Notes: generated by a model from the sequence alone, not told the origin. 64,000 nucleotides of DNA from an uncultured Planctomycetales bacterium (GCA_964545575.1 CAZJFL010000003.1:55000-118999); one strand, 5' to 3'; shown: positions 1,884 through 18,300, counted from the first letter of the stretch. Translations and numbers: made by a program.

Positions 1884-1887
1884 CTCT

Positions 1888-3279
1888 TTAACCCACCGTA
1901 GCTACCGCTACTTCTGCGCTAGCCTCCTGCTCACCCAACAACCGCGGCAATGACAAAACTATGGCTGCCATAAACCAGAATGGCTCCATAACGATAATTA
2001 TAATGAAAGTATTTGTGCTGATTGCCTGCATCAGGAGCCCGACAAAACCAGCCATAAACCCTACGGCAAGCCCCTTGCTAAAGTTATCTTCTCTGGCTAA
2101 AATCTCGCCCAATGCTTCTTTGGCTACTTTAAAAAACCTGAAGAGCGCCCGCAGGAACAAAAATAATCCCAGAAGCCCCGATTCACAAAGCACTAAAAAC
2201 AGCTGGCTGTCAATAAAATATTTGCCGACGCCGTGGCCGATAATAGGGCTTGCCGGGAATCTTTCAAATAATACTATCTTCCAGCTCTCCAGGCGCGCCT
2301 GGGGAGAATCTTCCCATTTCAGAGTAGGCCCCTCTACAGATTGTTGCACCGTAAGCGTCTCCGTTATCCTGTCCCTGACCATAGTAGGCATAAACACTAC
2401 TGCCAAAAGCAAAACAGCGATTACCAGATATATAAGATTAAATCTTTTGGAAAAGAAAACAAAACTGACGAGCATGGGTATAAAAGCCAGGTAAGAACCT
2501 CTGGATAGAGTGTAGAGGAACCCTCTGAACATTAACAATAACAGAATAGCTAATAATGCCCTGATATAGAGCGGGCGCGCATACACTAAAAGGCCTGCGA
2601 CAATAGCAATCATAAAAAGCAGATACCCTCCCAGGGTCCCTGGCTCATCGCCTCCCACTTTCGTGACCGGCGGAGCTGCCCTGAAATACTGCACCCCAGC
2701 CAGCTGCTGCTGCTCAATATACTGGTGGGCATGAATTGAAACAAAGAGCGCAGTCAGCAGGAATATCAATATGAATATCTTGGCCTGCCCGAGGCTTCTC
2801 ATGTTTTCCCTGACTATTAAAAATAAAAGAAAATATTCCAGATATTTGAGTATCGTAAAAAAGCTCTGCTTGAGGTCTATGTCAGCTGATAGTGCTGCTA
2901 TCGACGTAGCGAGCGCGCAGAAAGCATAATACATGAAAAAACAGGCAGTGAGCTTAGTCTTAAATACTGCCGTAACATCTTTTGTCATGGCTGTCCTGAT
3001 AAAAGAAGCCAAAATAACCACTAATAAGAAAATATCCTCTATGCGTACGGTTACCCCTCTGACAGAAGTGCTGCCCATTGTTATTTCCGGAGAAAAAAGC
3101 ATGGAGACTATAATTATCACCAGGCCTATGTCCGGGTTGATCAGGGTCGGTATAAAAACCAGAAGAAAAATCAGGAAGCCGGTAGTCTGCGGGTTAAACT
3201 GCGCCTTTGCCAAAAAAAAAGTTATGCTCAGGCCCATGAGTAAAATACCGAAATAGACTAAAAGCTTATTTTTATCCAT
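1888..3279 (-). CDS. Polytopic membrane protein, Wzy/O-antigen ligase-like polysaccharide polymerase candidate
   Basis: 463 aa with about 10-12 hydrophobic helices and one larger loop. The call rests on its position within the EPS locus and its topology only. Confidence 0.45.
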   Translation of the reverse strand: MDKNKLLVYFGILLMGLSITFFLAKAQFNPQTTGFLIFLLVFIPTLINPDIGLVIIIVSMLFSPEITMGSTSVRGVTVRIEDIFLLVVILASFIRTAMTKDVTAVFKTKLTACFFMYYAFCALATSIAALSADIDLKQSFFTILKYLEYFLLFLIVRENMRSLGQAKIFILIFLLTALFVSIHAHQYIEQQQLAGVQYFRAAPPVTKVGGDEPGTLGGYLLFMIAIVAGLLVYARPLYIRALLAILLLLMFRGFLYTLSRGSYLAFIPMLVSFVFFSKRFNLIYLVIAVLLLAVVFMPTMVRDRITETLTVQQSVEGPTLKWEDSPQARLESWKIVLFERFPASPIIGHGVGKYFIDSQLFLVLCESGLLGLFLFLRALFRFFKVAKEALGEILAREDNFSKGLAVGFMAGFVGLLMQAISTNTFIIIIVMEPFWFMAAIVLSLPRLLGEQEASAEVAVATVG

Positions 3280-3323
3280 TCTTAAAAACCCGCGCCTTTA
3301 GAGCTTATCTATGTATAGCGAGA

Positions 3324-4457
3324 TTAAACCGAATCCTGGATAGACGGAAAATCCTGATTAGATAGATCTATGATAATGTTTTCTTTAGGCGGCTCGTTAC
3401 TGGCATCCCTGATAATCATCACTACCGGCCGTAAGGGAGAACCCGGCTCGACACTAATAACCTTGGCTAACTCTTGCGTATCTAGCCTGACAATGCTGCC
3501 TATCGGATAGACGGACATCTTATTGATGAATACCTTCAGCACGTCCGGGTCAAAATAATCTTTGGCGCCAGCCAGAAGGAACCGGATAGCCTTATGCGCG
3601 CTCATCCCCTGGCGGTACGGCCGGCTGTTGGTAAGCGCCTCGTAGGTATCTGCCAGCCCGATTATCTTGGCATAGGGATTTATATTTTCTGATTTTATGC
3701 CCCGGGGATAACCTTTACCAGAGAAGCGCTCATGGTGCATGCGTATAGTCTCTTTTACGAGGTCGTTGATGGCAGGGATCCTATCAACTACTTTTAAACT
3801 TTTGGAAATATGCGTCTTTATTAAAACGAGCTCTTCTTCGGTAAGTTGGCGGGGCTGGCCTGCGATTTCCCGCAAGGGATCCATTCCTATGTCGTAAAAT
3901 ATAGCCGCCAGCCCTAAATGGTTGAGACGAGATTTATTAAACCCCATATTTAAGCCTATGACAGAAGATAAGACCATAACGTTAGTGATGTGATAAGGCA
4001 GGTAATATTCGCCCCTCTCTCTGACATATATGTTATCCAATATACTATCCCCCAAGACCAACTGATTAAAGATGTCGTCTAAAAGGACTTCAATCTTGTC
4101 TATGTAGGGGAGCAGGTCTCCCTTGAGCCTCACTTTTTCCAGAAGGATATTTACTATCCCCACGGCGTCTTCGTAGATCTCCTGCGTCCTATCCTTATTA
4201 TCCACGCCGTATTTTCTCACTGCCGAAATAAGCTTCTTCGATAATAAGGCGCAATCTTCTTTTTTTGCGGTTTGTTTCTTATCGATTGCGATAATATTTT
4301 TAGGGAAACTTAGGGGTTGTTCGGCGGGCGCCTGCTGCGCGTTATCTGTGGGCGCAGTATTTTCTGGAACCGCCTCTTTTTTACCTTCATCATCTTTAGG
4401 CTGGCCTGCTTCGTCCTGCGGCACTTTATTTCTGAGGATATCAAACATCCTTGGCAT
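3324..4457 (-). CDS. HD-GYP domain c-di-GMP phosphodiesterase
   Basis: 377 aa. HHERFSGKGYPRG (the HD...GYP signature) lies in the C-terminal half. The N-terminus is a low-complexity Pro/Ala/Gln linker. Confidence 0.7.
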   Translation of the reverse strand: MPRMFDILRNKVPQDEAGQPKDDEGKKEAVPENTAPTDNAQQAPAEQPLSFPKNIIAIDKKQTAKKEDCALLSKKLISAVRKYGVDNKDRTQEIYEDAVGIVNILLEKVRLKGDLLPYIDKIEVLLDDIFNQLVLGDSILDNIYVRERGEYYLPYHITNVMVLSSVIGLNMGFNKSRLNHLGLAAIFYDIGMDPLREIAGQPRQLTEEELVLIKTHISKSLKVVDRIPAINDLVKETIRMHHERFSGKGYPRGIKSENINPYAKIIGLADTYEALTNSRPYRQGMSAHKAIRFLLAGAKDYFDPDVLKVFINKMSVYPIGSIVRLDTQELAKVISVEPGSPLRPVVMIIRDASNEPPKENIIIDLSNQDFPSIQDSV

Positions 4458-5271
4458 GGACAGGAACCTCCTTGTTGAAATCTGAAGCGATTCTTTCGAT
4501 CAATCCCCCGTCAACCTCCTTTACCTCCTGGCCAAAACCGATCAAAAGGCTCATATCGCAAATATTATTTATCTTCCTCGGCAGGCCCTGGGCGTGGTCA
4601 TAAATGGCCTGCATAGCCTCTGCGGTAAATATCTCGCTCTTAGCACCTGCTACGCTAAGGCGGTGTTTGATATACTCCTCAGTCTCTTTTCTATCAAGGG
4701 CTGCCAAATGATATTTTATGCCTAACCTCTGCTCTAACTGCGGTATTGCCTTGACCTTGCCCAATAGTTCAGGTTGGCCTATCAATACCAGCGTAATCAG
4801 AAATTTATTATTCAGCTGAAAGTTAAGTATCAGCCTCAGCTCTTCAAAGGTTTCCTTGTTCTTGATAATCTGCGCCTCATCAATTAAAATCACGGTCTTT
4901 TTCTGGTCATTGTGATTTTTATAAATGATATCCTGCAGCATATGCAGCAGTTGCGGCTTTGAGCCTTGGATATGTTCGTTTTTCAACTGATAGATTATCT
5001 CCTGTATAAACTGGATAGGGGTAAGCTGCGGGTGGACGATAAGCGCGACCTCATAGATCTTGTTTTTTATAAGTTCCTCTATGATAATCCTGCTTAATAC
5101 GGTTTTACCCGAACCGTATTCTCCGGAGAGCATCGCAGCCCCCTTCTCCTCTTTTATGGCATAGAGCATCCTGGTAAGGGCTTCTTCATGCTTCTTGGAA
5201 TAATACATAAAACGCGGGTCAGGCGTGTTTTCAAAGGGTTTCTCGGCCAGGCCCCAGTATTTTTCATACAT
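4441..5271 (-). CDS. ExeA/GspA-like AAA ATPase (PEP-CTERM locus secretion-ATPase type)
   Basis: 276 aa with Walker A GEYGSGKT and Walker B VILIDEAQ. The architecture is that of the AAA ATPases that accompany Wzc/Wza in exosortase-type EPS loci. Confidence 0.65.
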   Translation of the reverse strand: MYEKYWGLAEKPFENTPDPRFMYYSKKHEEALTRMLYAIKEEKGAAMLSGEYGSGKTVLSRIIIEELIKNKIYEVALIVHPQLTPIQFIQEIIYQLKNEHIQGSKPQLLHMLQDIIYKNHNDQKKTVILIDEAQIIKNKETFEELRLILNFQLNNKFLITLVLIGQPELLGKVKAIPQLEQRLGIKYHLAALDRKETEEYIKHRLSVAGAKSEIFTAEAMQAIYDHAQGLPRKINNICDMSLLIGFGQEVKEVDGGLIERIASDFNKEVPVHAKDV

Positions 5272-7219
5272 TTTTTCCGCCCTCCTCTGTCTTTTTTTCC
5301 GAAGGATCCTTGCCGTAATACTTTTTGCTGTAATAATAGTAATAGGCGCTCATGCCAATCTCGGGGGTAACGTTATTTAAGATGATGCCGGCAAGCGATT
5401 TTTTGCCCCTGACGCTCTCTATCTGTATCTTTGACCTGCGCAGCGCCAAACGTGAGGTAGAACCTGCCCGGTAGACTAACAAGACGCCGTCTACTTTAGG
5501 CAATAGAATAGAAGGTTCGCTTACTGCCAATACAGGAGAGGTGTCCATGAGCACCACATCGTATCTGTTTCTAAAATACTGCAGAGTCTCATCGAGTTTA
5601 GAGGAATTAAACAGGGCTATGGTATTGGGGAAAGTTGAGCCTGCAGTGACTACATTGAGATTATTCAACCAGGGTTTCTCGATTATCCTATCGATAGAGG
5701 TAGAGCCCAACATTATATCTGTAGCGGTTTTTATGCTGGCCTCGATGCTTATTTTGCCCGTCAGAATATCGGTCAGGCCATTCTCCTTCTCTTTCAGGCC
5801 GAAGCTCTTGTGTATATGGGCCCTGCGGGTATCGGCATCGACCACCAGGACCTTATAACCCATCTGCGCCATAATCACACCGAGGCTGGAGACAATGACG
5901 GTTTTGCCCTCCTCCGGCTTGGAGCTGGTGATAAGAATTATATTATTCTTTATCTTTCCGTTTTTACCAAAAATCACCTGCAGGTTTACGCCTAAAAGGC
6001 GAAAGGCTTCAAGAAACAAAGAGGTACGGTCGGACTTTTCCAGATCAAGGATATACGTAGGCCTTAAGTCTAGAGCCATGTTTTCTTTTTTGAAAAGAGT
6101 CCAGTGCTTCTTTTTGCCACTCCTCTTCTCCTCCTCCTCATAATACTCTGTGCAGTAAGGAATAATTCCCACCACGCCTACTTTTACGAAAGTTTCAATA
6201 TCATCCACCCTGCCGATGGAAGTATCCAAATTCTCGGATACCAATGCCGTAGCAACGCCCAGAACTAAACCCAAGACTAGCCCTATTAAGTAATTCTTTT
6301 TCTTATCGGGCAAATACGGGGTTTTAGGCATTATAGCCGGGTTGATGATGACAATATTATCCAGTTTCTCCGCTTCTCTGATCTGGGCGGTCTGGAGCTG
6401 TTGTTTTAAGGCATTGTACAGGGTCTCGTTAATCTTGGTATCCCGCTGCAGGATACCATATTCGAATTCCTCTTTGGGCAATGAGTTAAGTTTCTGCTTT
6501 AATATGGATCTTTCCTCTTCCATGTTGACTAAAAGAGGGTATTTGGGCGTAAATCTGGTTGAGAAATCCGTTATCTTGTCATCCAAATCCCGAATCTGCT
6601 GCATAATGCTCGCTGCTACACCTACCGCACCCTGGGTGGTAAGAACACGCAGCCTCTCTTCCTGTTCCTTTAATTTTTCCGAAACATTGGCTAGCGTAGT
6701 CTCGATAAAAATCCTTACATTACGCGTGCGCTCATTCTTCTGCTCCATGTTTATCTCTTTAAATGCCTGGGCCACGCCGTTGGCGAAATCCGTTGCTTTG
6801 GCGGCGTCAGTAAAATAAGTGTAAAGCCGTATCATGCTGCTTTTTTCTATTTCGACCGCCGAAACCTTGCTGGCCAAATCACTGACTATCCGCTCCGCCT
6901 CTCTTTTGGCAACGCCATCTTTTACCCATCCTAATTCTCTGGCGGCTCTTTCTATGACCGGGCCGGTAACCACCTGTCTTATGTAATCGGAAAGCTCATA
7001 AGGCTGCATGTACGAAGAGCGGCTCGGAAATATCACATCGGAAGGGAGCGAGGTAGACTCTATCTTTAAAAGGACCGTTGCCCGATAAATTGGCACCTGA
7101 AAGTAAGTATAAAAAAAAGCACTGAAAAAAACTACCAGGAAGGCAAGAAGGATTTCCCATTTTCTCTTTAAGAATATTGTCGAGTAATCCCTCAGGTTTA
7201 GTTCGTAAAATTTCTCCAT
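5264..7219 (-). CDS. wzc: Polysaccharide co-polymerase / tyrosine autokinase (Wzc/GumC-like, fused chain-length determinant plus BY-kinase)
   Basis: 651 aa. N-terminal TM, a long coiled-coil periplasmic region, a second TM, then a P-loop ATPase (SSKPEEGKTVIVSSLG, VLMDTSP). The C-terminal Tyr-rich tail SAYYYYYSKKYYGK is typical of BY-kinases. Confidence 0.8.
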   Translation of the reverse strand: MEKFYELNLRDYSTIFLKRKWEILLAFLVVFFSAFFYTYFQVPIYRATVLLKIESTSLPSDVIFPSRSSYMQPYELSDYIRQVVTGPVIERAARELGWVKDGVAKREAERIVSDLASKVSAVEIEKSSMIRLYTYFTDAAKATDFANGVAQAFKEINMEQKNERTRNVRIFIETTLANVSEKLKEQEERLRVLTTQGAVGVAASIMQQIRDLDDKITDFSTRFTPKYPLLVNMEEERSILKQKLNSLPKEEFEYGILQRDTKINETLYNALKQQLQTAQIREAEKLDNIVIINPAIMPKTPYLPDKKKNYLIGLVLGLVLGVATALVSENLDTSIGRVDDIETFVKVGVVGIIPYCTEYYEEEEKRSGKKKHWTLFKKENMALDLRPTYILDLEKSDRTSLFLEAFRLLGVNLQVIFGKNGKIKNNIILITSSKPEEGKTVIVSSLGVIMAQMGYKVLVVDADTRRAHIHKSFGLKEKENGLTDILTGKISIEASIKTATDIMLGSTSIDRIIEKPWLNNLNVVTAGSTFPNTIALFNSSKLDETLQYFRNRYDVVLMDTSPVLAVSEPSILLPKVDGVLLVYRAGSTSRLALRRSKIQIESVRGKKSLAGIILNNVTPEIGMSAYYYYYSKKYYGKDPSEKKTEEGGKNV

Positions 7220-7238
7220 AGTAATATCAAACCTTTAC

Positions 7239-8009
7239 CTATTGCCAACCTTTGTCAACATGCCCGCCAATTTCTCTGACTGCCCTTCTCAGATCAATCG
7301 CTGTCATCGCAGCATTGATAGTAGGCATCATGTTGTCTAAGAACTGGTTAAAATCAGCGATAAAGGCCTTAGGCACGAATATCAGATCATTTGGCTGCAA
7401 TATAATATCTTGCCTAGTCGTGCCTTTTGTAAGCACCTGCAGCATATTTATCCTGGTGACCTGCGGCTTATCGGTTAAGTTCCCGCGCACCAGCAGAACG
7501 CAATCCCTGCGGGACTTAACGGTGAAGTCCCCGGCTAATGCTATTGCATCGATTAAAGTCGCCCTGCCCTTGTAAGAGTATATTCCGGCGTAGCCCACTT
7601 CGCCTAAGACAATTACCTGATTGCCGGCAAACTTTGTCATCATCACCGAAACCTGCGGGTTCTTCACGTACTCGGAGATCTTTTCCCTAAATGTATCCTC
7701 GAGCTGGCCTACGCTTAAACCGGCAACTTTAATCCTGCCCACCAGAGGATAAGATATAAAACCGTCGGGCCCTACCACGATATGCTTGCTAAGGTCGGGG
7801 TTCTGCCAGATAAAAATTTCCATGGTATCTTCCGGCGCAATAAAATATTCAACCATGGGAAACTCTCCGGGCGTAGCTTCTTTTTCCGATGCCAGCGTAC
7901 CGCTCCTTACCCTTAAAAATTCCTGCCCCTGGGCAAAAGATTCTTGAACTCCGTAATATATTAGGAATAAAGAAAATATAACCCAAAGGATAAAAAAATT
8001 CTTTTTCAT
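7239..8009 (-). CDS. wza: Wza/GumB-like periplasmic polysaccharide export protein
   Basis: 256 aa with a signal peptide. The polysaccharide-export (Poly_export plus SLBB) pattern is present: PGDTMEIFIWQNPDLS, DGFISYPLVGRIKVAGLSVGQLE. Confidence 0.7.
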   Translation of the reverse strand: MKKNFFILWVIFSLFLIYYGVQESFAQGQEFLRVRSGTLASEKEATPGEFPMVEYFIAPEDTMEIFIWQNPDLSKHIVVGPDGFISYPLVGRIKVAGLSVGQLEDTFREKISEYVKNPQVSVMMTKFAGNQVIVLGEVGYAGIYSYKGRATLIDAIALAGDFTVKSRRDCVLLVRGNLTDKPQVTRINMLQVLTKGTTRQDIILQPNDLIFVPKAFIADFNQFLDNMMPTINAAMTAIDLRRAVREIGGHVDKGWQ

Positions 8010-8083
8010 AAAAATATAGGGCTCCTTTGCACTAAACTCCTATTCTATATTTTATCTTATACCGGTAAAAAATCAATCCTTTT

Positions 8084-9691
8084 TTAAGCGGGTTTTGGCA
8101 ATACTAATTTTGCTATCCCTTTAAAAATTCTCAAGATATAACTTCTCTGCCCCATTGCCTGCCGCGGGGGAAAAACCACCTTTTTTAAAATAATCAGGTA
8201 ATCCTTTAAGCAACGCGCCTCTGTTATTTCAAAAAAAATGTAGGCTAAAAACTTATCCAGGAAAGCCCTGCGCAGCCCTTCCTTCAAGATAACATTTTTA
8301 TTGGCAAAAGCCCGGATAAAAATGCGCTTAGGCGAAGAGAGGCCTAACCAAGCCAATAGTTCTCCAGGAAACCGGGGAACAAAAAAATCCTGATTCAGCC
8401 TGAGCGCTGCATATAGCGAGCCGCTCAGCCGCCATTTTTTTGCTTTATCCGCTAAACGCTGCCAGTTAATTTCCGGGGCATATTTTTGGAGCAATCGGTT
8501 GATATCAGCTACGGCTCTTAAGGTCCGGAAGGAATTGCTGTTGACCAGATGCGCCGAAAGGTAAAGCAGGAGCTCTTCCGGCTTAAAATCGTAATAACTT
8601 GCCCCCTCCCGCTCCACCGGCTCTGTGCCCTCCCATAATCCCTCGATGCGCTCGCGGCTGCGCACCATCATTGTTATATCCCAGTGTAGATCCACTTTTT
8701 TTTCTTTGGATTTAGAAAACTCATACTGCCATTGCCACTTTTCCACAAGTTCGGCCCTGGAGAACCGATAGCCAACCCCCTCTAATGCATTTTTTGTAAT
8801 TTCTCTATCCTCTTCTTTTATCAAAAAATCAAAATCGCAGCTTATGCCCCTTCCTGCAATATTTCCATAAAGCCTCTTAGCCAAAATTGTTCCCTTTAAG
8901 GGTAAAACCAGAATACCCTTTTTTGTAAACACCCCTAGAAGTTCCTCCAGCTGCTTATGCTGGTAATTGACTTCTGAGATTATGAAAAGGTAACTGAATT
9001 TTAATCTATCAAAGACAAATTGCGGGATATCTCGGCGGGGGGCAATTTCTCTTAAGGCATCATACACCAAAATAGTAACTCCTTTTTTCATCGCCAATTC
9101 TAAAAATCTCTGCCAGTAAAGGCCTTCCTTTATTAAACTTGCGGCTTCCTTTTTTAATTTTTCATCTAAATTTTTCTGGCAACAGATTAAGAGAAGCTCT
9201 TCGGTGTTGTAGAGCAAGGGGTTTGCCTTTTTTAATCTATTTTTTAGCTTAAATAGAAACAGCCTCCATTCGATGGCTAAACTTATGTACTTTGATAAAA
9301 AGCTAAGCGCCTTTGGATACCTCAATGAGAGTTGCGCAATAAACCTGTTAAAACGCCTCCATAAAGGCAGATTTAAATCAAAGCTGATTTTTCCCCTCCG
9401 GATTTCGGTTACTCTGCCGACAATTGATTCCGAATTTACTGGATTTTCCAGTCCCCCTTTATGGGCATCTCCTTTTGTAAAATAGGCTGTTTTTCCATCC
9501 TGCTCAATAATCTTTACCACCCGATGGGTGAGAAAAAGCTTTTCTTTATTTATCGGCACAACTTTTATGCAGTCGCCATTTTTTATAAAAGGGCACATGC
9601 TTAAACCTTTGGCGTTGAAATATAGAGGCTTGGCCTCCTGCGTTAAGCTTGAGCCTAAAGCCTTTGCTTTTTGTTCTTCTTTTACGATCAT
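8084..9691 (-). CDS. Fusion protein: N-terminal S24/S26-type (LexA/signal-peptidase-like) serine peptidase domain plus C-terminal uncharacterised nucleotidyltransferase-family domain
   Basis: The N-terminal ~130 aa carry KGLSMCPFIKNGDCIKV (the GxSMxP nucleophile motif) followed by downstream Lys residues. The C-terminal ~400 aa look like the 'nucleotidyltransferase family protein' (NTP_transf_5-like) found with PqqD/HprK-like genes. The likely start is the internal Met at 9691, which avoids overlap with the ABC gene. Confidence 0.5.
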   Translation of the reverse strand: MIVKEEQKAKALGSSLTQEAKPLYFNAKGLSMCPFIKNGDCIKVVPINKEKLFLTHRVVKIIEQDGKTAYFTKGDAHKGGLENPVNSESIVGRVTEIRRGKISFDLNLPLWRRFNRFIAQLSLRYPKALSFLSKYISLAIEWRLFLFKLKNRLKKANPLLYNTEELLLICCQKNLDEKLKKEAASLIKEGLYWQRFLELAMKKGVTILVYDALREIAPRRDIPQFVFDRLKFSYLFIISEVNYQHKQLEELLGVFTKKGILVLPLKGTILAKRLYGNIAGRGISCDFDFLIKEEDREITKNALEGVGYRFSRAELVEKWQWQYEFSKSKEKKVDLHWDITMMVRSRERIEGLWEGTEPVEREGASYYDFKPEELLLYLSAHLVNSNSFRTLRAVADINRLLQKYAPEINWQRLADKAKKWRLSGSLYAALRLNQDFFVPRFPGELLAWLGLSSPKRIFIRAFANKNVILKEGLRRAFLDKFLAYIFFEITEARCLKDYLIILKKVVFPPRQAMGQRSYILRIFKGIAKLVLPKPA

Positions 9692-9695
9692 TTTT

Positions 9696-11441
9696 TTAAA
9701 ATATAATTCCTTCTTCCGAAGCTGCCTCAATCTGGCTGGCAAATAATTCCCTATACCCCGCATTCCTTAAGAGTTCCTCGTGGCTGCCGATATAAATATC
9801 GGCGGGGCCTTCTAAAAAATAGGCCAGCTCCATCTTTTTAACCGTAGATAGCCTATGCGAAACAACGATTATGGTAGAATCTCTGAATTCATTTTTGATA
9901 TTATCGATGATTTTTTCCTCGGTTTCAGAATCTAACGAAGACATCGCTTCATCTAAAATCAGGATACTCGGCCTTTTTATTACTGTTCTGGCAATGGCAA
10001 CCCTTTGCTTCTGGCCCTCGGAAAGTTTACAGGCCATCTCTCCAATTAGCGAATCGTAGCCTTGGGGCAGCTTAAAAATAAATTTATCGATTTGCGCGAT
10101 CTTCGCTGCCTTAACCATTTCTTCATAACTGGCATCATCTTTTCCGTAGAGGATATTATTGGCAAGCGTATCATTCCAGAGGAGCGCCTCCTGAAGGCAA
10201 ATACCAATTTGCTCCTTCAAGGATTTTAATTTAACATCTTTTATATTCTGGCCGTCGATTAAAATCGAGCCTTTTTCCAGATTATAAAGCCTTAAGATCA
10301 AAGAAAGCAAAGTTGTCTTTCCGCATCCTGATTTTCCTACCAGGGCAATTTTTGAGCCGGGTTTGATTGTAAAATTTACCCCTTTTAAGACAAATCCATC
10401 TTTTTGGTATGTAAAATGAACGTCATGAAATTCTATTTTTCCCTTTAGAATCTTTGCCCCGGCGGCACCCTCTTTATCCCTTATCTCTGTTTTGATATCG
10501 AGAATTTCTGCCAGGCGCTGGTAGGATACTGAATTTACAAAAATATTTTCATAAAATCCTGCCATTGACTTAAACGCCCCCAAGGCTTGAGTTAAATAAA
10601 TCATTAACGCAGTCAGGCTTCCTAAGGTCAGATCCCCCCTGATAACTTGATAACCGCCGTATAAAAGAATTATCCCGCTTATCAGCTTGTTAAGAATAGA
10701 GCTGGAAAAACTGCTCATGCTGCGTATGCGGGCGTTTTTGAACTCAAAATCCGTCCTTCTTAAAAGAGATTCCTCAAATCTTTTTATCTCATACTCTTCT
10801 TTGCCCAAAGCCTTTACCAGATGCATATGGCTGAAAACTTCCTGAAGATTTCTATAAATATCCTGGGACTTATCAATGACCCTATAGGCTACCTGTTTTA
10901 GCCATTTTCCAAAAAAATAGGGATGGATAAAACTTAGGGGGGCCAAAATAAAGGTAAAAAAAGCAAGTTTCCAGTTAAGATAAAAAACGATGCATGAAAT
11001 AACCGCCAGGCGCAAAATTACTAAAGGTACCTGGGGGAGGCTGTTAGAGATAAAGCCGCTTACGGATGAAACATCGTTGCTTATACGATAAATATGCTCG
11101 CCTGTAGATTTATCCTTAAAGAAACTTAAAGAGAGGCTCTGCAGGTGCCTGAATAAATCTTTGGTTATATCAAAGCGTACCTGGGAATTTACTTTCGAGG
11201 AAAGGTAACTGATTAAGGAATTGATTAAACCATTTAGGATGAATATGCTTGCGCCAATAACAGCTAAAATCAAAAATAATTTTAGATCCTTATTCGCATA
11301 TGCCCTATCAATGACCAGCTTTGTAAGATAGGGGTTGATTAAACTTAAAGGCAAGCTAACCAGCCCTAAAAGAATTACCAGAGTCTCAATTTTCCAGTAT
11401 CTATAGAGATATTTATTAAAGCGTTTCCAATTTACATTCAT
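9696..11441 (-). CDS. ABC exporter, fused permease/ATPase (MsbA/LagD-like, no C39 peptidase domain)
   Basis: 581 aa. Six TM helices, then Walker A GKSGCGKTT, signature LSEGQKQRVAIAR and Walker B ILILDEA. Confidence 0.85.
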   Translation of the reverse strand: MNVNWKRFNKYLYRYWKIETLVILLGLVSLPLSLINPYLTKLVIDRAYANKDLKLFLILAVIGASIFILNGLINSLISYLSSKVNSQVRFDITKDLFRHLQSLSLSFFKDKSTGEHIYRISNDVSSVSGFISNSLPQVPLVILRLAVISCIVFYLNWKLAFFTFILAPLSFIHPYFFGKWLKQVAYRVIDKSQDIYRNLQEVFSHMHLVKALGKEEYEIKRFEESLLRRTDFEFKNARIRSMSSFSSSILNKLISGIILLYGGYQVIRGDLTLGSLTALMIYLTQALGAFKSMAGFYENIFVNSVSYQRLAEILDIKTEIRDKEGAAGAKILKGKIEFHDVHFTYQKDGFVLKGVNFTIKPGSKIALVGKSGCGKTTLLSLILRLYNLEKGSILIDGQNIKDVKLKSLKEQIGICLQEALLWNDTLANNILYGKDDASYEEMVKAAKIAQIDKFIFKLPQGYDSLIGEMACKLSEGQKQRVAIARTVIKRPSILILDEAMSSLDSETEEKIIDNIKNEFRDSTIIVVSHRLSTVKKMELAYFLEGPADIYIGSHEELLRNAGYRELFASQIEAASEEGIIF

Positions 11442-11500
11442 GGTTAAATTGTCAAATCGCTATATTGTTATACTGCTAGGTAATTTGACAGTTTAGCGGT

Positions 11501-12424
11501 TTATTTTGTCTTGCGCACAAACCCGATCACTCTTTTATTATTTACAAACCCCAAACGATAACAAGGCACGCTGCTAAGCAAATCCTGGCAAAAGGAAACG
11601 ATATTCTCTAAACAATTTTTGTCCCAGAAGGTGGGGAATAAACAGGGATACAGTAGGTTAAGGGCTGACTTTTTAGAAATTATTTTTATTTTATTCTCCG
11701 GGCTATGATAGATAAAAAATATCTTCTCCAGAGGCGCGGATTCTATCTTTGAGCTTAAATAATCGCTGAATGCGCCATGCCAGGGAGAGCTGTAGATAAA
11801 GAATCTTTTTTTAATTTTACGGATGATTATACGATCGTCATTTAAAACCATGGCTTTTGAATGATTATACCAGAGCTTGGCCAGAGTAGTTTTGCCGGCG
11901 TGAGATTTACCGGCAAAAAGTAAACCCTTGCCTTGCAAATCTTTTATCCCCACAGAATGGGTAAAAATTCCTTGCCTTCTTAAGGCAAGATGATTTATCA
12001 GCAGGACCTGTAAAAAGTCATAGATAATATCGGTGAAATTCCAGGCTCTTGCCTTGTTTTTTTTAGGCAAAAGATAAGCATTTACCTTATCAAAGGCCGG
12101 ATTCACCCGCATAAGTTGTTTCTTGGCTTCTAAAGGGCACTTATAGATATAAAAATCATTCTTTTTAAGCAGGCGCCAATTCTCATTTTTGCTTATATAG
12201 TGAGTAGTGATAAAGATATCTTGCGCCTGCCTGATTTCGGGCAATTTGTCTACGATGTTAACCTGAATAGTAATATGCGGTTTTTGCCTTCCCTTATAAA
12301 AAAAATTTTGAAAGCGCTCAAACCTTTCCAGCCTCTTCTTTTCTTTAGTCCGCTGTTCAAAGGGAAAAGCGCTTTGCATCTGAATGACTATATCGGCAAT
12401 CTTTAATTTTACCCTGTACTCCAT
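11501..12424 (-). CDS. HprK-related P-loop kinase (ScmC / HprK-related-kinase type)
   Basis: 307 aa. GKGLLFAGKSHAGKTTLA and LNDDRIII resemble the HPr kinase C-terminal P-loop domain (G-x-S-G-x-GKS ... ADDR). It sits in a PqqD/radical SAM context. Confidence 0.55.
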   Translation of the reverse strand: MEYRVKLKIADIVIQMQSAFPFEQRTKEKKRLERFERFQNFFYKGRQKPHITIQVNIVDKLPEIRQAQDIFITTHYISKNENWRLLKKNDFYIYKCPLEAKKQLMRVNPAFDKVNAYLLPKKNKARAWNFTDIIYDFLQVLLINHLALRRQGIFTHSVGIKDLQGKGLLFAGKSHAGKTTLAKLWYNHSKAMVLNDDRIIIRKIKKRFFIYSSPWHGAFSDYLSSKIESAPLEKIFFIYHSPENKIKIISKKSALNLLYPCLFPTFWDKNCLENIVSFCQDLLSSVPCYRLGFVNNKRVIGFVRKTK

Positions 12425-12425
12425 A

Positions 12426-13484
12426 TTAACAGTTTAAACCTTGCTTTATTTTTTTGGCAAAAATCCGGCTCTCGGGCTCGCAGGAGGTGAAGGTTTTATT
12501 GTAAAGCCATGCCCTCCCCGGGCACCATTTGCAGAAAGGCGCTAAATTGCATCTGTCGCATTTATAATTTTTATCTTGCTTAATTGAGGAAACCAGTCCT
12601 TTTAGCCTCTGCCAGGCATCTTTTAAAGAGGTCTTTAATATTTTGTATTTAGGAAAATCAATCATCAAGCACATTTTCAGTTCTCCAAAAGGATTAATTG
12701 CTGCCTGGCTTACTCCTACTGCGCATTTAAATAAATTATTGCTATCGGGTATTTGGTTTGTAGCCACTAAATCACACTCTTTAAAATTATCTTTTCTTAT
12801 GGCCTGCAACCTGTAGCCTGTAGCCTGTAGCTTATTTTTTAAACTTCCCCTATACCTAAATGGCTCTTTTGAACCATCTAGGCGTGGCGAAAGCCTGGTA
12901 TCCAGCCGATGTAGGGCGCCTAAGGATTCGGCAAAATCCTGGATATCCTCTATTTGGGCTTCGTTTTCTTTTAAAACACAGGTCTTAAAACCTAAATTGA
13001 CTTTATTTTTATGTAAAAGCCCGATTGCTTTAAAAACTTTTTTATATGAACCGGGAGAACAGGTTATCTTCTCAAAAGCGGCTTCAGTCATTGCCGGAAG
13101 GGTAATATCTACCTTGTTTGGTTTAAGCTGGGCTAATTCCCGGGCAATTATTTCATCGATTAAAGAGCCATTGCTATAAATGATGATTTCAACCCCTTTT
13201 TTCTTAGCATAGCAAAGGATCTGTATTATATCCTTTCTCATAAACGGTTCGCCGCCTGTAAAGCCCAAATAGAAGCAACCTATATCAGCCAGTTGATCAA
13301 GAATAGAAAATACCTCTTTAGTCTTAAGTTCTCTTTTTTCTCTAAAACTTTCCGGGACATAACAGTGCCTGCATTTAAAATTACATCTATAGGTTAACTC
13401 GAACATCACCCTTAAGAGAGAACCTTTTTCCTTTGCGCTCTTATGTATCTGTTGCCAGAACTTATTGTAGGCCCTAGTCTGCAT
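12426..13484 (-). CDS. Radical SAM/SPASM-domain peptide-modifying enzyme
   Basis: 352 aa. CX3CX2C (YRCNFKCRHCY) near the N-terminus; C-terminal SPASM Cys cluster (CDRCNLAPFCKWCPGRAW). Confidence 0.8.
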   Translation of the reverse strand: MQTRAYNKFWQQIHKSAKEKGSLLRVMFELTYRCNFKCRHCYVPESFREKRELKTKEVFSILDQLADIGCFYLGFTGGEPFMRKDIIQILCYAKKKGVEIIIYSNGSLIDEIIARELAQLKPNKVDITLPAMTEAAFEKITCSPGSYKKVFKAIGLLHKNKVNLGFKTCVLKENEAQIEDIQDFAESLGALHRLDTRLSPRLDGSKEPFRYRGSLKNKLQATGYRLQAIRKDNFKECDLVATNQIPDSNNLFKCAVGVSQAAINPFGELKMCLMIDFPKYKILKTSLKDAWQRLKGLVSSIKQDKNYKCDRCNLAPFCKWCPGRAWLYNKTFTSCEPESRIFAKKIKQGLNC

Positions 13485-13485
13485 C

Positions 13486-14586
13486 TTAACCGCCTAAACG
13501 CTTTCTCTCTGCTAAGGTGGCTTTAGCCAAATCGCAATAATAAGTTACCGGGGATTCCTCATCCCCGGTTTCTAAGAAAGCCCTGGCTGGGCAGTTATAG
13601 CAGAGCGGCCTTAAAGAACAGAGCCGGCATTTAGATTCGGTTTTAAATTTCTCCTTTAAGATTCCGGGAAAGACGCGGTAAAAGCCTTCTTTAAAGGGAG
13701 TTTCTTTTAAATCCACGCTGAATTTTTCAGAAAACATGCAAAACTTCAATTTTCCATAGGGATTGATAAAGAAATACTTCTTCCAGATATTGCAACGGTA
13801 AAGAAAATCTTTATTTCTGCTTAAATCCGGAAAATCGCTCTTTAAACGCCGCTGGTATTCTTCCCAGATTTGGGGGTCTTGTCTTCTTGCCTCTTTTAGC
13901 TCGGAAAAATTAAGTCTAAAATTTGTGGGGGCTATGTCTCCATTCAGCCGGGGGTAAATCATCGGGTCATATTTGAAATGGTATCTATTTTTGGAAGGCC
14001 CCCCCCAAAGTTGTTCGGTCCATTGTTTTATGCTTCCCAGCTCGTCTTTATTCTGCTTAAGGCAGTTTGTCTTCACTATCAAGGGTATTTTACTTTCTGC
14101 CAAAAATTTAATATTCTTTATTGCCTTTGAAAAAGAACCCCCTACCCGGCTTATCTTTTCATAGGTATCTTTGGTTATCCCGTTTAAAGTGACCTCGATG
14201 GACAGGGGCGGAGATTTTATCAAATAATCAAAAATCTCTTTGCTGAATAGCTGCGCATTAGTAAAAATGGTTACAAGAAAACCTTTTTCTTTGGCAAAGG
14301 AATAAAGCTCTAGAAAATCATCCCTGATTAAGGGATCCCCTCCGGTAAAGGTAACCCATAGACAACCCTCTTTTTTAATCTCGTTTAAAATTTTCTTCCA
14401 ATCTTGAGTGGTTAATTCCTGGTTTGAGGTTTTGCGGTATTTTTGCGGTATTGCGCTATTTTTACAGTAGCAATGGATACAGTTAAGGCTGCAATTGTAG
14501 GTAAGCTCGATTGTGCCGCTTAAGGGGAATTGCCCTTTTTTAATCCTAAGCCGCTGATAAAAAGGGCCTAATCTTCGCTCTTGCAT
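13486..14586 (-). CDS. Radical SAM/SPASM-domain peptide-modifying enzyme (second paralog)
   Basis: 366 aa. CX3CX2C (YNCSLNCIHCY); C-terminal SPASM (CRLCSLRPLCYNCPARAF). Confidence 0.8.
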   Translation of the reverse strand: MQERRLGPFYQRLRIKKGQFPLSGTIELTYNCSLNCIHCYCKNSAIPQKYRKTSNQELTTQDWKKILNEIKKEGCLWVTFTGGDPLIRDDFLELYSFAKEKGFLVTIFTNAQLFSKEIFDYLIKSPPLSIEVTLNGITKDTYEKISRVGGSFSKAIKNIKFLAESKIPLIVKTNCLKQNKDELGSIKQWTEQLWGGPSKNRYHFKYDPMIYPRLNGDIAPTNFRLNFSELKEARRQDPQIWEEYQRRLKSDFPDLSRNKDFLYRCNIWKKYFFINPYGKLKFCMFSEKFSVDLKETPFKEGFYRVFPGILKEKFKTESKCRLCSLRPLCYNCPARAFLETGDEESPVTYYCDLAKATLAERKRLGG

Positions 14587-14589
14587 AAA

Positions 14590-14850
14590 TTAAGATTGCC
14601 CTTCGGCCGAGTAAGGAGTCTGTCCTGCTGGATAGATACCAGGAGGAAACTCGCAAACCCCCTCACCCAGCATCTCTTTTGTAGCGACCTCAGTCCAGCA
14701 AATATTATCTGGGGGTGGAGGGGTATTAGCTAGATGTGCTGTTGTCCATGCCACACCAAACTCAAAACAGTTACAAGACAGCACTGCCTGCTCGGGGTTT
14801 AATTTTATCCGGCTAATCACCGGCCTAAACTTTGGTTTTCTCGTCTTCAT
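14590..14850 (-). CDS. Small Cys/Trp/Pro-containing protein; candidate precursor peptide of the radical SAM cassette
   Basis: 86 aa: MKTRKPKFRPVISRIKLNPEQAVLSCNCFEFGVAWTTAHLANTPPPPDNICWTEVATKEMLGEGVCEFPPGIYPAGQTPYSAEGQS. Its start overlaps the PqqD stop (ATGA) and is preceded by GGAGGTAAA. It has four Cys and lies immediately before the two rSAM/SPASM genes. Confidence 0.4.
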   Translation of the reverse strand: MKTRKPKFRPVISRIKLNPEQAVLSCNCFEFGVAWTTAHLANTPPPPDNICWTEVATKEMLGEGVCEFPPGIYPAGQTPYSAEGQS

Positions 14851-15137
14851 TTTACCTCCTCTATTGCCTTTATCTTCCTTAAATCTTCCAGCAGCACCTG
14901 CAATTTTTTGTCTGTTTCTTCTTCTGTGGTATCAAACTTTTTTAAAATCGCTTTTCTAATATCTTTTAGGGTTCTTTTTCCATCAATTAAATCCCAGATC
15001 TTTAAGGCAGCCTTATTTAGGGTATAAATATAATTTGCTTCCTCGGATGTCCTATAAATGGGTATCAGCATCGCTTGATCATCTATCTGGCGGCTGACTA
15101 TATCCGGGCTCTTCTTTAAAACTGCATCCTTTTTCAT
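14847..15137 (-). CDS. PqqD-family RiPP recognition element (RRE) / peptide chaperone
   Basis: 96 aa. Fits the PqqD family pattern (DQAMLIP...YTLNKAALKIWDLIDGKRTLKDI). SD AAGGAGG lies before the ATG. It is the first gene of the operon. Confidence 0.75.
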   Translation of the reverse strand: MKKDAVLKKSPDIVSRQIDDQAMLIPIYRTSEEANYIYTLNKAALKIWDLIDGKRTLKDIRKAILKKFDTTEEETDKKLQVLLEDLRKIKAIEEVK

Positions 15138-15358: not shown

Positions 15359-18300
15359 TTAACGCAGGTACCAGTGATCCTCATCGCCCACTAAAAGCTT
15401 ATATCCGGGAAATATTATTTTTGAATAGTCAGAACCGAGATCCATTCTGCTGTTAGCATCAAGGAAGCTAAAACCGACTCCGCTATAAACGTCGATCCTA
15501 GTGTTGTCAAAGATATCTGCGTCTAAGAAGGATATCAGCCCGCCGGCATGAAGATAGAGCCGGTCAATGGTAGTAATACCTACCGCCTCTAAGCTAATGC
15601 TACCAGCAGCATAAAGGGAAATCCAATCATGCGGACCAAAGGAAAAACCCCCTGTCAGAGTAATACTCCCTCCAGTAGAAGTAATAGCCAGTCCTTTGTT
15701 ACCTATAAAGTGGCTAAGGAAAGATGTATTGGCAGTAAGGCTATCTGCACTTTGGAGGTAGATGTAGGAAGAGGTAGCTGTGTTATTTAAAGTAAGGCTT
15801 CCTCCTCCGCTTTTATCATAATTCGCATAAAGATAGATCTTGTCGGCGGCTATACTTTGGTTTAAAGTAACGTCTCCGTAAGCAAGAATATAGATTGCTG
15901 TCAGCCCGGAGAGCTGCGAGTCAACAACAATGGTGCCAGCGGCAGCAGTAGAAGTAATGCCAAGCCCTCCGCTGTAATTGGATAAACGGGGAAGGAGTGC
16001 ACTTAAGGTAAATCCGGTCGGATTCGCACCTTGGAGGTAGATGTAGGGAGCGGTAACCATGATGGTCGGCGGTGTTATGAAAGTAAGGCTTCCAGAGCCC
16101 TTTTTATCATTATCCGCATAGAGATAGATCGCACCGTTTATTGTATCGTTTGTGCTAATAGTAGTCCTGTTTACAGTAAGAGTTCCGGCAGCAAAAAGGT
16201 AGACTCCATCATTTCGGGCAATGGGCGCAGATACCGTAATATCTCCGTTGGTAGAGCAAACACTTAAAACGCCGGTGTTGTTGATTAAAAAGCCAAGGAA
16301 AGCTGCATCGATGAACATAATTGCTGCCCCATCAGGCGCACTTTGGAGGTAGATCTTGGCAGCTTCTACATATTTATTATTTAAATTAAGGGCTCCCGAG
16401 CCATCTTTATCATTATCCGCAAGAAGATAGGCGCAGGGGGCTGTTATCGCTGTTGCCGACAGAGGATTTAAAGTAAGAATTCCAGCAGCATAAAGGTAGA
16501 TTCCCGTATTTCGGGAAATGGCCGTAGTTACCGTAATATCTCCCGTGGCAGCCACTTCTGCTTTAAGAGCGTTGATGCTTAAAACATCTGCGGCACCACC
16601 GGAATAGGCTAATTTGTTCAGGAAAGTCAAATCAATAGTAAAATTCTGCGCGCCTTGGAAGTAGATGTTGGCAGCATTGAAGGTGCCCAATGTATAAGAA
16701 ATCTGTCCCGATATAGCGCCAACACTATCCCCATACGCCGCATAGACGTAAATCTTGCCGCTCCCAGAGGTAACTGATAGGGCTACCGGACCACCTACCC
16801 CTACAGTAATATTTTCCGCACCATAAAGGTAGATTCCCTGAGTGCGGCTAATGTCAGTTGTTACCGTAATATTTCCGGCAGTAGAGGTGATGCTTAAGAG
16901 CTGGGTGTTACTGGTTAAAAAGCCGAGGAAACTTCCATCGATAGTAAAACTACCCGTACCTTGGAAGCCCGCACCTTGGAGGTAGGCGTAGGCAGCGTCA
17001 ATCTTTGTACCTACGCCCCCTATATAAAGTTGTCCTGCTTTATCTTTATCCTGATCCGCATAAAGGTAGACGTGGCCGCCGACTGCGTTGTCGCTGATTA
17101 TATCTGCATTTACAGTAATATCTCCAGTAGCATAAAGGTAGATATTATTTCGGCCACTAATGCGCGCACCTACAGCTACCGTAATATTTCCGTTGGTAGA
17201 GTAGAGACTTAAAACGCCGGTGTTGTTGATTAAAAAGCCAAGGAAACTTCCATCGATATTAAAAAGCTGCGCCTTTTTGAGATAGATGTTGGGAGAGTTG
17301 ATTAGTATGTTATTACTAAGGGTTCCTGTTTTATTTTGATCATAATCCGCATAAAGGTAGACCGCGCCGGTTGTTGCGGTAGAGGCGTTGGCCTGGGCCA
17401 CTGTAACATTATTATCAGCATAAACATAAATTTTACCTCCCGTTGCCGTAATAGTTCCACAGGTAATATTAAGTGAAGCATGAAGATTGACATCTTGGCC
17501 TCCGGTAATCACAGAAGACGCGCCGCCACCAATACAATAAATACTACCGCTTGCGGAAATATAAACTGAACCGGCGGCATTTAAATTATACGTTCCAGGC
17601 ACCCCCAGAATAACATTATGCCCAAAGATTTTTATATCGCCGGAAGTAGCAACGGTAATCGAGGTTCCGTTAGCCTGGGTAAAATCTCCGTCCCCGTTAT
17701 AATCTGAATCAGCCACAAAGATGAAATCAGTACCCGTGACAGTAATACTAGCATTCACATTTATATTGCGGGCGGCTTCTAAGGGACCAACGAGACCTAT
17801 CGGATTGCTAATAATGACGTCATAAAAGGGATGGCCACCAGGAGTGATGGTCGGGGTACTCCCGCCGTTAAAAGTGACAAGTGAGTTTCCAGGGTCAAAA
17901 GTAGCAGCTTCGCTTAAGGTAAAATTACCCCCCACGGATATGTTTGAGCTTTGGGCATTAAAAATAGCGCCGCTGTTTAAAATAAAACTACCACCCACGG
18001 CTAAAGTAAAAGATCCACAATTGACTTCTCCTGAATCTTGGCTATAAGGGCCGTTAATATTAAGGCCCCCCGCCAGGGTGATTGACCCTGAAAAACCACT
18101 TGTAATAATCAGGGAGTTAATCGTTAACCCTGGCATATTCATAATAGTATCGTCTGAGGTTGTATTAAAGATAATATCTTGGCCGTCAGGAGGTATCTGA
18201 GGATTCCAGTTAAGCGGATCTGACCAAAAAATGCCGTCGCCAGGCGGAAACCCCCCTGCCCCCACCCACTCCGGGTCTAAATGCCAGCCCACGATGCTGC

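Follow-up and report, generated by a model that had tools for sequence, protein, structure and literature searches.

The locus described here raises the question of what a protein that joins a peptidase-like domain to a nucleotidyltransferase-like domain does in a peptide biosynthetic cassette. The gene encoding this protein is located on the minus strand of a 64,000-nucleotide stretch of DNA, referred to below as the window, from an uncultured bacterium labelled Planctomycetales (GCA_964545575.1 CAZJFL010000003.1:55000-118999). An earlier note, made from the sequence, regarded the gene as an undescribed fusion of an S24/S26-type serine peptidase with a nucleotidyltransferase family protein and as a candidate for leader removal. 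We propose, with a probability of about 0.75, that the gene is a fusion of an LppS-type leader peptidase and an LppN/PsmN-type tailoring enzyme, that it belongs to a pathway for peptides that are made by the ribosome and modified after translation (RiPPs), of the linear polyphosphorylated peptide (LPP) type (PMC13381572), and that its protease half is damaged in this copy. As separate genes, the two parts are the described leader peptidase LppS and the tailoring enzyme LppN, and the system is therefore a fused variant of a known one, namely a non-Bacillota variant of the LPP pathway augmented with radical SAM enzymes. The LppS–LppN fusion and its occurrence outside Bacillota together with radical SAM enzymes were absent from the literature searched. 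The claim of novelty thus holds for the fusion itself and not for its parts, which are a described pair.

The open reading frame (ORF) that had drawn attention is a real fusion gene on the minus strand, with an LppS-like N-terminus, a PF14907 match of 166 bits and a likely start at position 9691. In its longest form it overlaps the gene of the neighbouring ABC exporter by 68 nt. An ATG codon lies 4 nt past the stop codon of the exporter gene, and the equivalent MI(V/L)EEK sequence is the start in most of the 37 homologues in the alignment. The coding sequence was therefore taken to begin at this ATG, which is almost certainly the true start and gives a protein of 535 aa. Residues are numbered from this methionine throughout unless the long ORF is named; the GLSMCP motif occupies residues 53-58 of the 559-aa long ORF.

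The N-terminal S24/S26-fold domain and the PF14907 nucleotidyltransferase domain are joined within one ORF. Related loci were collected by a scan of one genome per species with an 8-sequence alignment as the query, which gave 35 loci that were annotated with our own hidden Markov models (HMMs). The survey for separate genes that had been suggested earlier showed that, of these 35 loci, which were found through the protease motif, 25 encode the protease on its own, 9 have it joined to the transferase and 1 has it joined to the ABC exporter. As the parts are adjacent separate genes in most phyla, and as the fused gene of one Omnitrophota locus (L008) is split by an apparent frameshift, it might be argued that the window gene is an assembly chimera or a pair of neighbouring genes joined through a sequencing error. 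However, an identical 552-aa protein was called on at least eight contigs, and the six contigs shown represent six different samples. The fusion is common in databases: of 81 clusters of homologues retrieved from 5.8 billion proteins, 43, from many assemblies, contain both domains in the same architecture with a conserved linker, and more fused representatives were found in an exhaustive profile search. These observations leave practically no room for an artefact.

The earlier note had proposed a Pfam search of both domains. This search gives PF14907 for the C-terminal part, but no match in the N-terminal region of the fusion protein. The N-terminal region does match two NCBIfam models, TIGR02228 for archaeal-type signal peptidase I (E 2.3e-7; 30.9 bits, under the curated cut-off of 51.85) and SipW (E 6e-7, also under the curated cut-off). 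TIGR02228 matches all 38 full-length fused proteins that were aligned, with a best E of 5e-15, and the four stand-alone relatives tested reach 54-62 bits, which is above the cut-off. Our own family HMM recognises the protease domain of the window with an E of 9e-31, and in BLASTP this domain matches LppS with an E of 2e-10. When a profile of the N-terminal domains of the homologues was compared with the PDB sequences, SEC11C (E 2.5e-9) and SEC11A (E 4.8e-9) were found, and their SM, HR and GD boxes lined up with those of the profile; the N-terminal 130 aa of the window protein alone gave chance matches only, and the homologue profile was needed. The AlphaFold model of the N-terminus of an intact homologue (P0005, residues 1-191) has a mean predicted local distance difference test score (pLDDT) of 83, and the greater part of its core reaches ~90 or more. 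Its top Foldseek matches are SEC11C, SEC11A, the C-terminal domain of the λ repressor, SipA and SpsB, all with a probability of 1.0. The full-length model of the window protein gave nucleotidyltransferase matches only, with no S26 match among the 50 rows shown, since the small N-terminal domain of lower confidence is swamped. Placement of the N-terminus in the S24/S26 superfamily, as originally suggested, is thus borne out by the TIGR02228, SipW and LppS matches and by the SEC11 and λ cI fold matches of the intact homologue.

Residues S31, M32, P34, D40, H56, R57, D75 and R99 are invariant across the 38 fused proteins, and by sequence comparison they are assigned to boxes B, D and E of the ER/archaeal-type (S26B) signal peptidases. 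Ser31 is invariant also in the 36 aligned loci from many phyla and aligns to the SGSMEP box of SEC11. The HR pair, His56-Arg57, is conserved without exception in the same 38 proteins and 36 loci and aligns to the VHRV box of SEC11. His56 occupies the position of the Lys in S24/S26A enzymes, and a His is found at this position in SEC11, SipW and the archaeal S26B enzymes as well. The earlier note had expected a Ser-Lys dyad, with the catalytic Lys to be found after the Ser. No catalytic Lys is present in box D of the 38 fused proteins and 36 loci, and the conserved residues K37 and K73 fall in other boxes. The dyad is absent, since the position of the general base is occupied by His instead of Lys. 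The GD-box residue Asp75 is invariant as well. Glu82 stands at the position of LppS D93 in the profile alignment, where most homologues have Asp; the alignments made by hmmalign and by BLASTP differ in register by one residue here. The N-terminal domain is predicted to be a soluble S26B protease with a Ser-His-acid active site.

The shared superfamily fold brings to mind a LexA/UmuD/λ cI-type (S24) self-cleaving module that regulates or releases the transferase. The C-terminal domain of the λ repressor (2ho0) is the third Foldseek match, and some of the homologues pass the Pfam Peptidase_S24 threshold. However, His stands in place of Lys as the general base, and in both sequence and fold the domain comes closest to SEC11, SipW and archaeal signal peptidases. 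In the 25 loci with a stand-alone protease nothing is attached that could be released, and the stand-alone homologue LppS cleaves a separate precursor in trans (PMC13381572). No conserved Ala-Gly or Cys-Gly site was noticed in the alignment of the linker, although no search aimed at one was made. We consider self-cleavage extremely unlikely. A Cys replaces the nucleophilic Ser, with the His of the HR box kept, in 3 of 140 representatives from the exhaustive search. One such member, P0065, reads SWCMFP at residues ~50-60, compared with GMSMYP elsewhere, and such members are possible Cys-His variants of the S26 fold.

The C-terminal half is a nucleotidyltransferase-fold domain of the PF14907 family, which accompanies PqqD and HprK-like genes, just as had been recognised from the sequence. 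The match reaches 166.3 bits against a gathering threshold of 31.2 and covers profile positions 5-248 of 249 (long-ORF residues 217-461). Residues K266, G267, D286 and D288 are invariant in the 38 fused proteins, and the domain is modelled with a pLDDT above 90. The top Foldseek matches of the full-length model are LnuA, ANT(2'')-Ia and TM1012 (probability 1.0), and FKRP is also found. The domain matches LppN of Paenibacillus alginolyticus with an E of 6e-13. Phyre2 likewise gave ANT(2'') enzymes (5cfs, 4xje) as structural homologues of PsmN, which is needed for the addition of a hexose to phosphoserine and in which the DxD motif (D134/D136) is essential (PMC6993621). The window domain shares with LppN and PsmN the Pfam family, the fold, the invariant metal-binding DxD motif (D286/D288 in the window) and, as partners, a kinase of the HprK-like kind together with an ABC exporter, and it differs from them in being fused to a protease. 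The transferase half of the window protein is intact.

The pathway to which both halves point was described in May 2026, when the stand-alone LppS of P. alginolyticus was reported to be a leader peptidase dependent on a RiPP recognition element (RRE). The core set of LPP genes encodes the precursor LppA, the HprK-like kinase LppK, the RRE LppB, the signal peptidase I (SpI)-like peptidase LppS, the MsbA-like exporter LppD and the NTP transferase LppN, and the clusters are located within capsular polysaccharide loci, often beside paeninodin-type lasso clusters. The deletion of lppS abolished processing, and cleavage by LppS requires LppB, the PqqD-like RRE. The S29A, H68A and D93A variants of LppS are inactive. 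Cleavage of LppA takes place at FET↓AQS, the core peptide is polyphosphorylated on S3, and no activity of LppN was seen in the heterologous system. The RRE-dependent cleavage and the polyphosphorylation of Ser were shown for P. alginolyticus only, and LPPs were stated to be restricted to Bacillota. The paper does not mention the fusion, a radical SAM enzyme or Omnitrophota, and the non-Bacillota homologues in its supplementary list are few and stand-alone only (all PMC13381572). The published strain is present in our scan as locus L023, in which the ORF 2654-3109 corresponds to LppS and carries S29, H68 and D93 at the published positions. Another Paenibacillus locus, annotated with Pfam, contains two adjacent cassettes, as the paper describes.

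The window contains the SpI-like peptidase, the RRE, the HprK-like kinase, the NTP transferase and the MsbA-like exporter in one same-strand block (8084-15137). This combination agrees with the published core set and is seen again among the 35 loci surveyed. Its protease domain belongs to the same subfamily as LppS, with the SMxPF[IL]KxGD, HR and GD boxes common to both. S29 and H68 of LppS correspond to Ser31 and His56, and Glu82 lies at or next to the D93 position. The partners are also shared, that is, a PqqD-type RRE, a kinase resembling HprK, an MsbA-like exporter and an NTP transferase within a polysaccharide locus. The HprK-like protein matches the LppK ORF of P. alginolyticus with an E of 7e-12, and its precomputed assignment in newer Pfam releases is PF27840 (ScmC), marked as weak. 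The stop codon of the PqqD gene overlaps the start codon of the precursor gene (ATGA, 14847-14850). The exporter lacks a C39 peptidase domain, as had been stated earlier; Pfam finds only ABC_membrane and ABC_tran in it. In contrast to the window domain, LppS is a stand-alone protein of 151 aa; the window domain is fused to a transferase and is without box C and a portion of the N-terminal helix. Unlike the LPP system, the window cassette belongs to a host outside Bacillota and adds two radical SAM enzymes and a Cys-containing core. The LPP class is delimited by a linear product made without another class-defining maturase, and with these two enzymes and this core the window cassette stands outside that limit.

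The precursor was compared with LppA as well. Its homologues adjoin the cassette in other Omnitrophota and at other loci and share the leader sequence [KR]-P-x-I-x-[RK]-[IV]-K-[LM]-x-P-E-Q-A-V-L-[SA]-C, which aligns to the LppA leader with one gap. The window leader, KFRPVISRIKLNPEQ↓AVLS, likewise aligns with one gap to the LPP motif YxxPxVLxHQxIxFETxxS, with the P, the aliphatic pair, S, E and A conserved but with departures at the [Y/W]xxP and F-E-T positions. By homology to the FET↓AQS site of LppA, cleavage is predicted at NPEQ↓AVLS. Cleavage after the S/A of A-V-L-[S/A], a signal-peptidase-style -3/-1 site, had been considered and was dropped after the alignment with LppA. The Ser of AVLS was likewise considered as the kinase target by analogy with S3 of LppA; it is replaced by Ala in two Omnitrophota precursors and therefore cannot be a universal phosphorylation site. 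All six precursors from radical SAM cassettes (window, L001, L005, L006, L009 and L031) have a C-terminal Ser/Thr and several Cys in the core, whereas the Paenibacillus LPP precursors end in Lys or His, are rich in Gly, Asn and Pro and contain no Cys. The C-terminal Ser/Thr may be an alternative kinase target, as in paeninodin-type lasso peptides.

We propose a route modelled on the characterised Paenibacillus system. The PqqD protein would bind the leader, and the kinase homologue would phosphorylate the peptide. The protease domain would dock on the PqqD–leader complex and cut at the end of the leader, at the predicted site. The transferase domain would decorate the phosphorylated peptide, and the exporter would release the product. 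The fusion would hold the protease and the transferase at a 1:1 ratio beside the exporter.

A Sec-type signal peptidase dedicated to the proteins exported by an exopolysaccharide (EPS) or biofilm locus, comparable to Bacillus SipW with its biofilm matrix proteins, would be a different function for the N-terminal domain. The closest models are indeed SipW and archaeal signal peptidase, the gene is located in an EPS export locus, and a large secreted protein with a two-partner secretion (TPS) domain is encoded upstream. However, an N-terminal membrane anchor is missing, as the fusion protein has no hydrophobic N-terminus. The β-domain is followed by two to three amphipathic helices of borderline hydrophobicity, for which the 19-residue Kyte-Doolittle maximum is ~1.1 (family range ~0.1-2.2). 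This helical extension is also found at the C-terminus of stand-alone peptidases and goes with the peptidase, not with the transferase (L009). Since the domain is part of a soluble fusion to a cytoplasmic-type nucleotidyltransferase, its active site would face the wrong compartment with respect to the membrane. PqqD, the HprK-like protein and the ABC exporter accompany the domain even at loci with no EPS genes nearby, such as the minimal cassette L033, and the leader of the 86-aa peptide is of the RRE type and not a Sec signal. The Sec-type function is very unlikely on these grounds.

Leader removal, the role suggested in the earlier note, has been shown for the family in the case of LppS (PMC13381572), but is doubtful for this copy because of a unique internal deletion. 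The missing segment is box C (IKIGDIVAVD...W), which comprises one β-strand and a loop; in the model of the intact P0005 it corresponds to strand E66-70. Only the window copy is without box C, which the 37 other fused proteins and every other aligned locus retain. In the BLASTP alignment with LppS the deletion appears as a gap of 14 residues. The window protein also lacks ~10 residues of the N-terminal helix, and its conserved LSLL..G and SMYPF motifs are altered. In LppS this helix touches the RRE–leader complex (PMC13381572). Of the strongly conserved alignment columns, the window copy deviates at 6 of 24 in the protease (25%), compared with 4 of 68 in the transferase (6%). Members with a similarly conserved transferase (at most 7% departures) depart from 0-15% of the protease columns. 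The N-terminal domain of the window copy is modelled with a pLDDT of ~65-70 and one strand fewer, and the score falls below 50 at residues 50-55, the deletion site. The nearest full-length relative, with 69% identity in the transferase, is devoid of a protease domain and shows the gene order ScmC-ABC-NTP5-Wza. A second copy of the protease was not found in the window with our own family HMM. As one core β-strand and part of the N-terminal helix are missing, the protease half is probably weakened or inactive and is probably being lost in this lineage. In two Omnitrophota loci, L002 and L045, no protease gene of the LppS-type family was detected in the sequence examined. The exporter, transferase and Wza genes are kept at both loci, and L045 also retains the ScmC gene.

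The reading of the window gene as an LPP-type fusion with a damaged protease half has to be weighed against several observations. Experiments exist for stand-alone Bacillota members only, and the proposed transferase chemistry rests on the analogy with PsmN, since LppN was inactive in the published heterologous system. The window leader has FRP in place of [Y/W]xxP and P-E-Q in place of F-E-T; YxxP or WxxP is present in the leaders of some Omnitrophota relatives. The assignment of the host to Omnitrophota rests on the names of homologues only. With regard to the damage itself, Ser31, His56 and Asp75 are kept, the acidic Glu82 is present at or next to the third position of the triad, the frame is unbroken, and six samples yielded the identical allele. 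A dead domain might be expected to decay further, and the truncated domain may therefore still work or dock. A low pLDDT can stem from an alignment mismatch and does not necessarily indicate an unfolded domain; AlphaFold2 still builds a β-barrel-like domain for this copy. These features, together with the lack of any other protease in the cassette or the window, would agree with a fully functional protease that serves as the leader peptidase of the cassette, the deleted segment being dispensable. On the other hand, no other copy, from Omnitrophota to Bacillota, lacks the box-C strand, and box C contributes to the S3 substrate pocket in structures of the E. coli signal peptidase. The helix that contacts the RRE–leader complex in LppS is shortened, the LSLL..G motif is altered, and the score on TIGR02228 is 30.9 bits compared with 54-62 for the four stand-alone copies. 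The closest full-length relative and other Omnitrophota cassettes manage without a protease domain. We therefore regard full function of this copy as doubtful, though a possibility to be taken seriously.

The protease has a wide range of partners. Among the 35 loci, a kinase homologue is found near the protease in 25, a transferase in 26 and an exporter in 23. The stand-alone proteases are ~110-280 aa long, typically 150-190. Loci with separate genes include those of Paenibacillus, Peribacillus, Bacillus, Alkalihalobacillus, Alicyclobacillus, Planctomycetia, Chloroflexota, Actinomycetota, Syntrophorhabdales and KSB1, and protease–transferase loci were found in Omnitrophota, a bin labelled Planctomycetales, Desulfobacteraceae and another delta-proteobacterial bin. 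The exhaustive profile search yielded 2,400 representatives at E<=1e-10. Among the best 150 of them, about three quarters are stand-alone, ~22 are protease–transferase fusions, 7 are fusions with a GNAT domain and 1 is a fusion with a methyltransferase. It seems that the leader peptidase has repeatedly been joined to tailoring enzymes. The recurrent fusions (protease–transferase, –GNAT, –GNAT–transferase, –methyltransferase and –ABC) provide 'Rosetta stone' evidence that the leader peptidase works near the tailoring enzymes and the exporter.

The single fusion with an exporter is found in a Lentimicrobiaceae bin (L033:7818-11750), in a minimal cassette of four genes encoding a 57-aa peptide, PqqD, an HprK-like protein and a 748-aa protease–ABC fusion. 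Lentimicrobiaceae belong to Bacteroidota. The S26B-like protease is located at the N-terminus of the exporter and passes the Pfam S24 and S26 thresholds; the cassette contains no transferase and no radical SAM gene. The protein is a serine-protease analogue of the C39-containing peptidase-containing ATP-binding cassette transporters (PCATs).

The variety of partners also allows a different view of the fused domain. It may be mainly an RRE-docking adaptor that brings partners to the PqqD-bound precursor, namely the nucleotidyltransferase here and GNAT, methyltransferase or exporter in relatives, and the window copy would have kept docking without proteolysis. More widely, radical-SAM-cross-linked phosphopeptides of the LPP type may be conserved in EPS/capsule export loci of distant phyla. 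We consider this combined proposal unlikely; if the peptides are so conserved in export loci, a functional link between peptide and polysaccharide would follow, rather than an antibiotic role. The peptide cassette lies within EPS/capsule export loci with Wza, Wzc, Wzy and PEP-CTERM-type ATPase genes in Omnitrophota and Planctomycetia (window 711-15137, L001, L005, L006, L011, L012 and others), and in Paenibacillus Wzc-like genes are located a few kb from the cassette. As the Omnitrophota, Planctomycetia and Paenibacillus loci are all near export genes, the association spans distant phyla, beyond the Bacilli, the only group for which the 2026 paper noted it (PMC13381572).

Comparison with other known systems shows where the window protein departs from them. 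The predicted protease has the fold and the Ser/His/Asp chemistry of SEC11A/C, SipW and archaeal signal peptidase I (MEROPS S26B), which are its best sequence and structure matches. It differs from these enzymes in lacking the N-terminal membrane anchor and in scoring under the curated cut-off, and its substrate would be an RRE-bound leader and not a Sec signal peptide. PCATs and the split lasso leader peptidase B1/B2 likewise couple a leader protease to an RRE, an exporter or both. The lasso cassette beside the Paenibacillus LPP cassette has the same gene set, with the B2 cysteine protease in the place of the protease. In contrast to these systems, with their cysteine C39 or transglutaminase-like enzymes, the protease here is a serine S26B enzyme, and its partner is a tailoring enzyme and not a transporter. 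The SynChlorMet (SCM) system shares with the window the HprK-like ScmC, a PqqD-like protein and two radical SAM/SPASM enzymes, and weak matches to all four models (ScmC, ScmD, ScmE and ScmF) were obtained. Membership of the cassette in SCM was rejected, as all matches are far under the curated cut-offs. To our knowledge, the definition of SCM includes neither a protease nor a transferase.

The results bear on two questions that the 2026 paper left open, the function of LppN and the reason for the placement in capsule loci, and on the restriction to Bacillota (PMC13381572). The module of protease, RRE, kinase, transferase and exporter is found in Omnitrophota, Planctomycetota, Chloroflexota, delta-proteobacterial lineages (Desulfobacteraceae and Syntrophorhabdales), Lentimicrobiaceae and Actinomycetota. 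Radical SAM/SPASM maturases often accompany this module, which stands next to Wza/Wzc-type export genes in Omnitrophota, Planctomycetia and Paenibacillus. The fusions can serve as better-behaved single-chain constructs for the study of LppN chemistry. Annotation is affected as well, in that hundreds of RiPP enzymes are listed under the names 'signal peptidase I' or 'nucleotidyltransferase family protein'. Stand-alone members at L012:7721-8176, L018:9929-10393, L011:9971-10471 and L024:9995-10501 score above the trusted cut-off of TIGR02228, an NCBIfam equivalog model, and would therefore receive the automatic name 'signal peptidase I', though they have no membrane anchor and act on RRE-bound leaders. 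The features of the fusion gene and its surroundings are collected in Table 1.

Table 1. Features of the fusion gene and its cassette, with related fused proteins. Positions are those of the window unless a locus is named.
Feature	Position	Strand	Remarks
Long ORF	8084-9763	minus	uninterrupted, 559 aa (ORF list)
Likely coding sequence of the fusion protein	8084-9691	minus	535 aa plus stop; ATG at 9689-9691 (long-ORF residue M25)
S26B-type (LppS/SipW/SEC11-like) serine peptidase domain, residues ~14-104	9380-9652	minus	TIGR02228, own HMM, BLASTP, profile
Ser31 codon, predicted nucleophile in GLSMCP (box B)	9599-9601	minus	codon checked; equals LppS S29
In-frame deletion site, between K51/L52 and F53	9533-9541	minus	~17-19 residues (box C) missing
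His56 codon, predicted general base in the THRVV 'HR' box (box D)	9524-9526	minus	equals LppS H68
Box E, TKGDAHKGGLE	9446-9469	minus	Asp75 at 9467-9469; Glu82 at 9446-9448
Helical extension after the peptidase domain, residues 105-160	9212-9379	minus	model helices 109-170; amphipathic, borderline hydrophobicity
NTP_transf_5 (LppN/PsmN-type) nucleotidyltransferase-fold domain	8087-9211	minus	PF14907; motifs K266-G267 and D286-x-D288 (8828-8836)
MsbA-like ABC exporter (LppD-like), 581 aa	9696-11441	minus	ABC_membrane and ABC_tran; tightly packed against the fusion gene
HprK-like P-loop protein (ScmC/LppK-like)	11501-12424	minus	sub-threshold HprK_rel_B and ScmC matches
Two radical SAM enzymes resembling SPASM-type peptide maturases	12426-13484, 13486-14586	minus	domain matches
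86-aa precursor peptide	14590-14850	minus	leader KFRPVISRIKLNPEQ, then Cys-containing core ending in Ser
PqqD-like RiPP recognition element (LppB-like)	14847-15137	minus	PF05402 E 4e-11; ScmD and lasso PqqD matches
Flanking EPS genes: Wza-like, Wzc-like, PEP-CTERM-type ATPase, HD_5, Wzy_C, DegT aminotransferase	711-8009	minus	domain matches
Protease–GNAT (7) and protease–SAM methyltransferase (1) representatives			P0117, P0143, P0146, P0169, P0190, P0196, P0207, P0184
Protease–GNAT–NTP_transf_5 triple fusions	L028:9905-11902		665-741 aa; also P0031, P0065

Every homologue cluster that carries an organism name, among the 81 clusters, is from Omnitrophota, and on this ground the host of the cassette is a probable Omnitrophota genome. 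Directly upstream of the cassette, at 15359-19963, a 1534-aa protein with a TPS domain and long repeats is encoded. No adjacent TpsB-type transporter is apparent, and the next gene, on the other strand at 20350-22065, is FtsH-like (AAA and M41). The fused gene of the Omnitrophota locus mentioned above (L008:1593-3460) consists of two overlapping ORFs with the break inside the transferase domain, which reflects a frameshift or a sequencing error. At L001:1674-2210, the PqqD ORF continues into a precursor-like tail (178 aa, ...KMQPEQAVLSCC...SSSSMVS), which is either a true fusion of the RRE with a precursor or the result of a read-through or frameshift.

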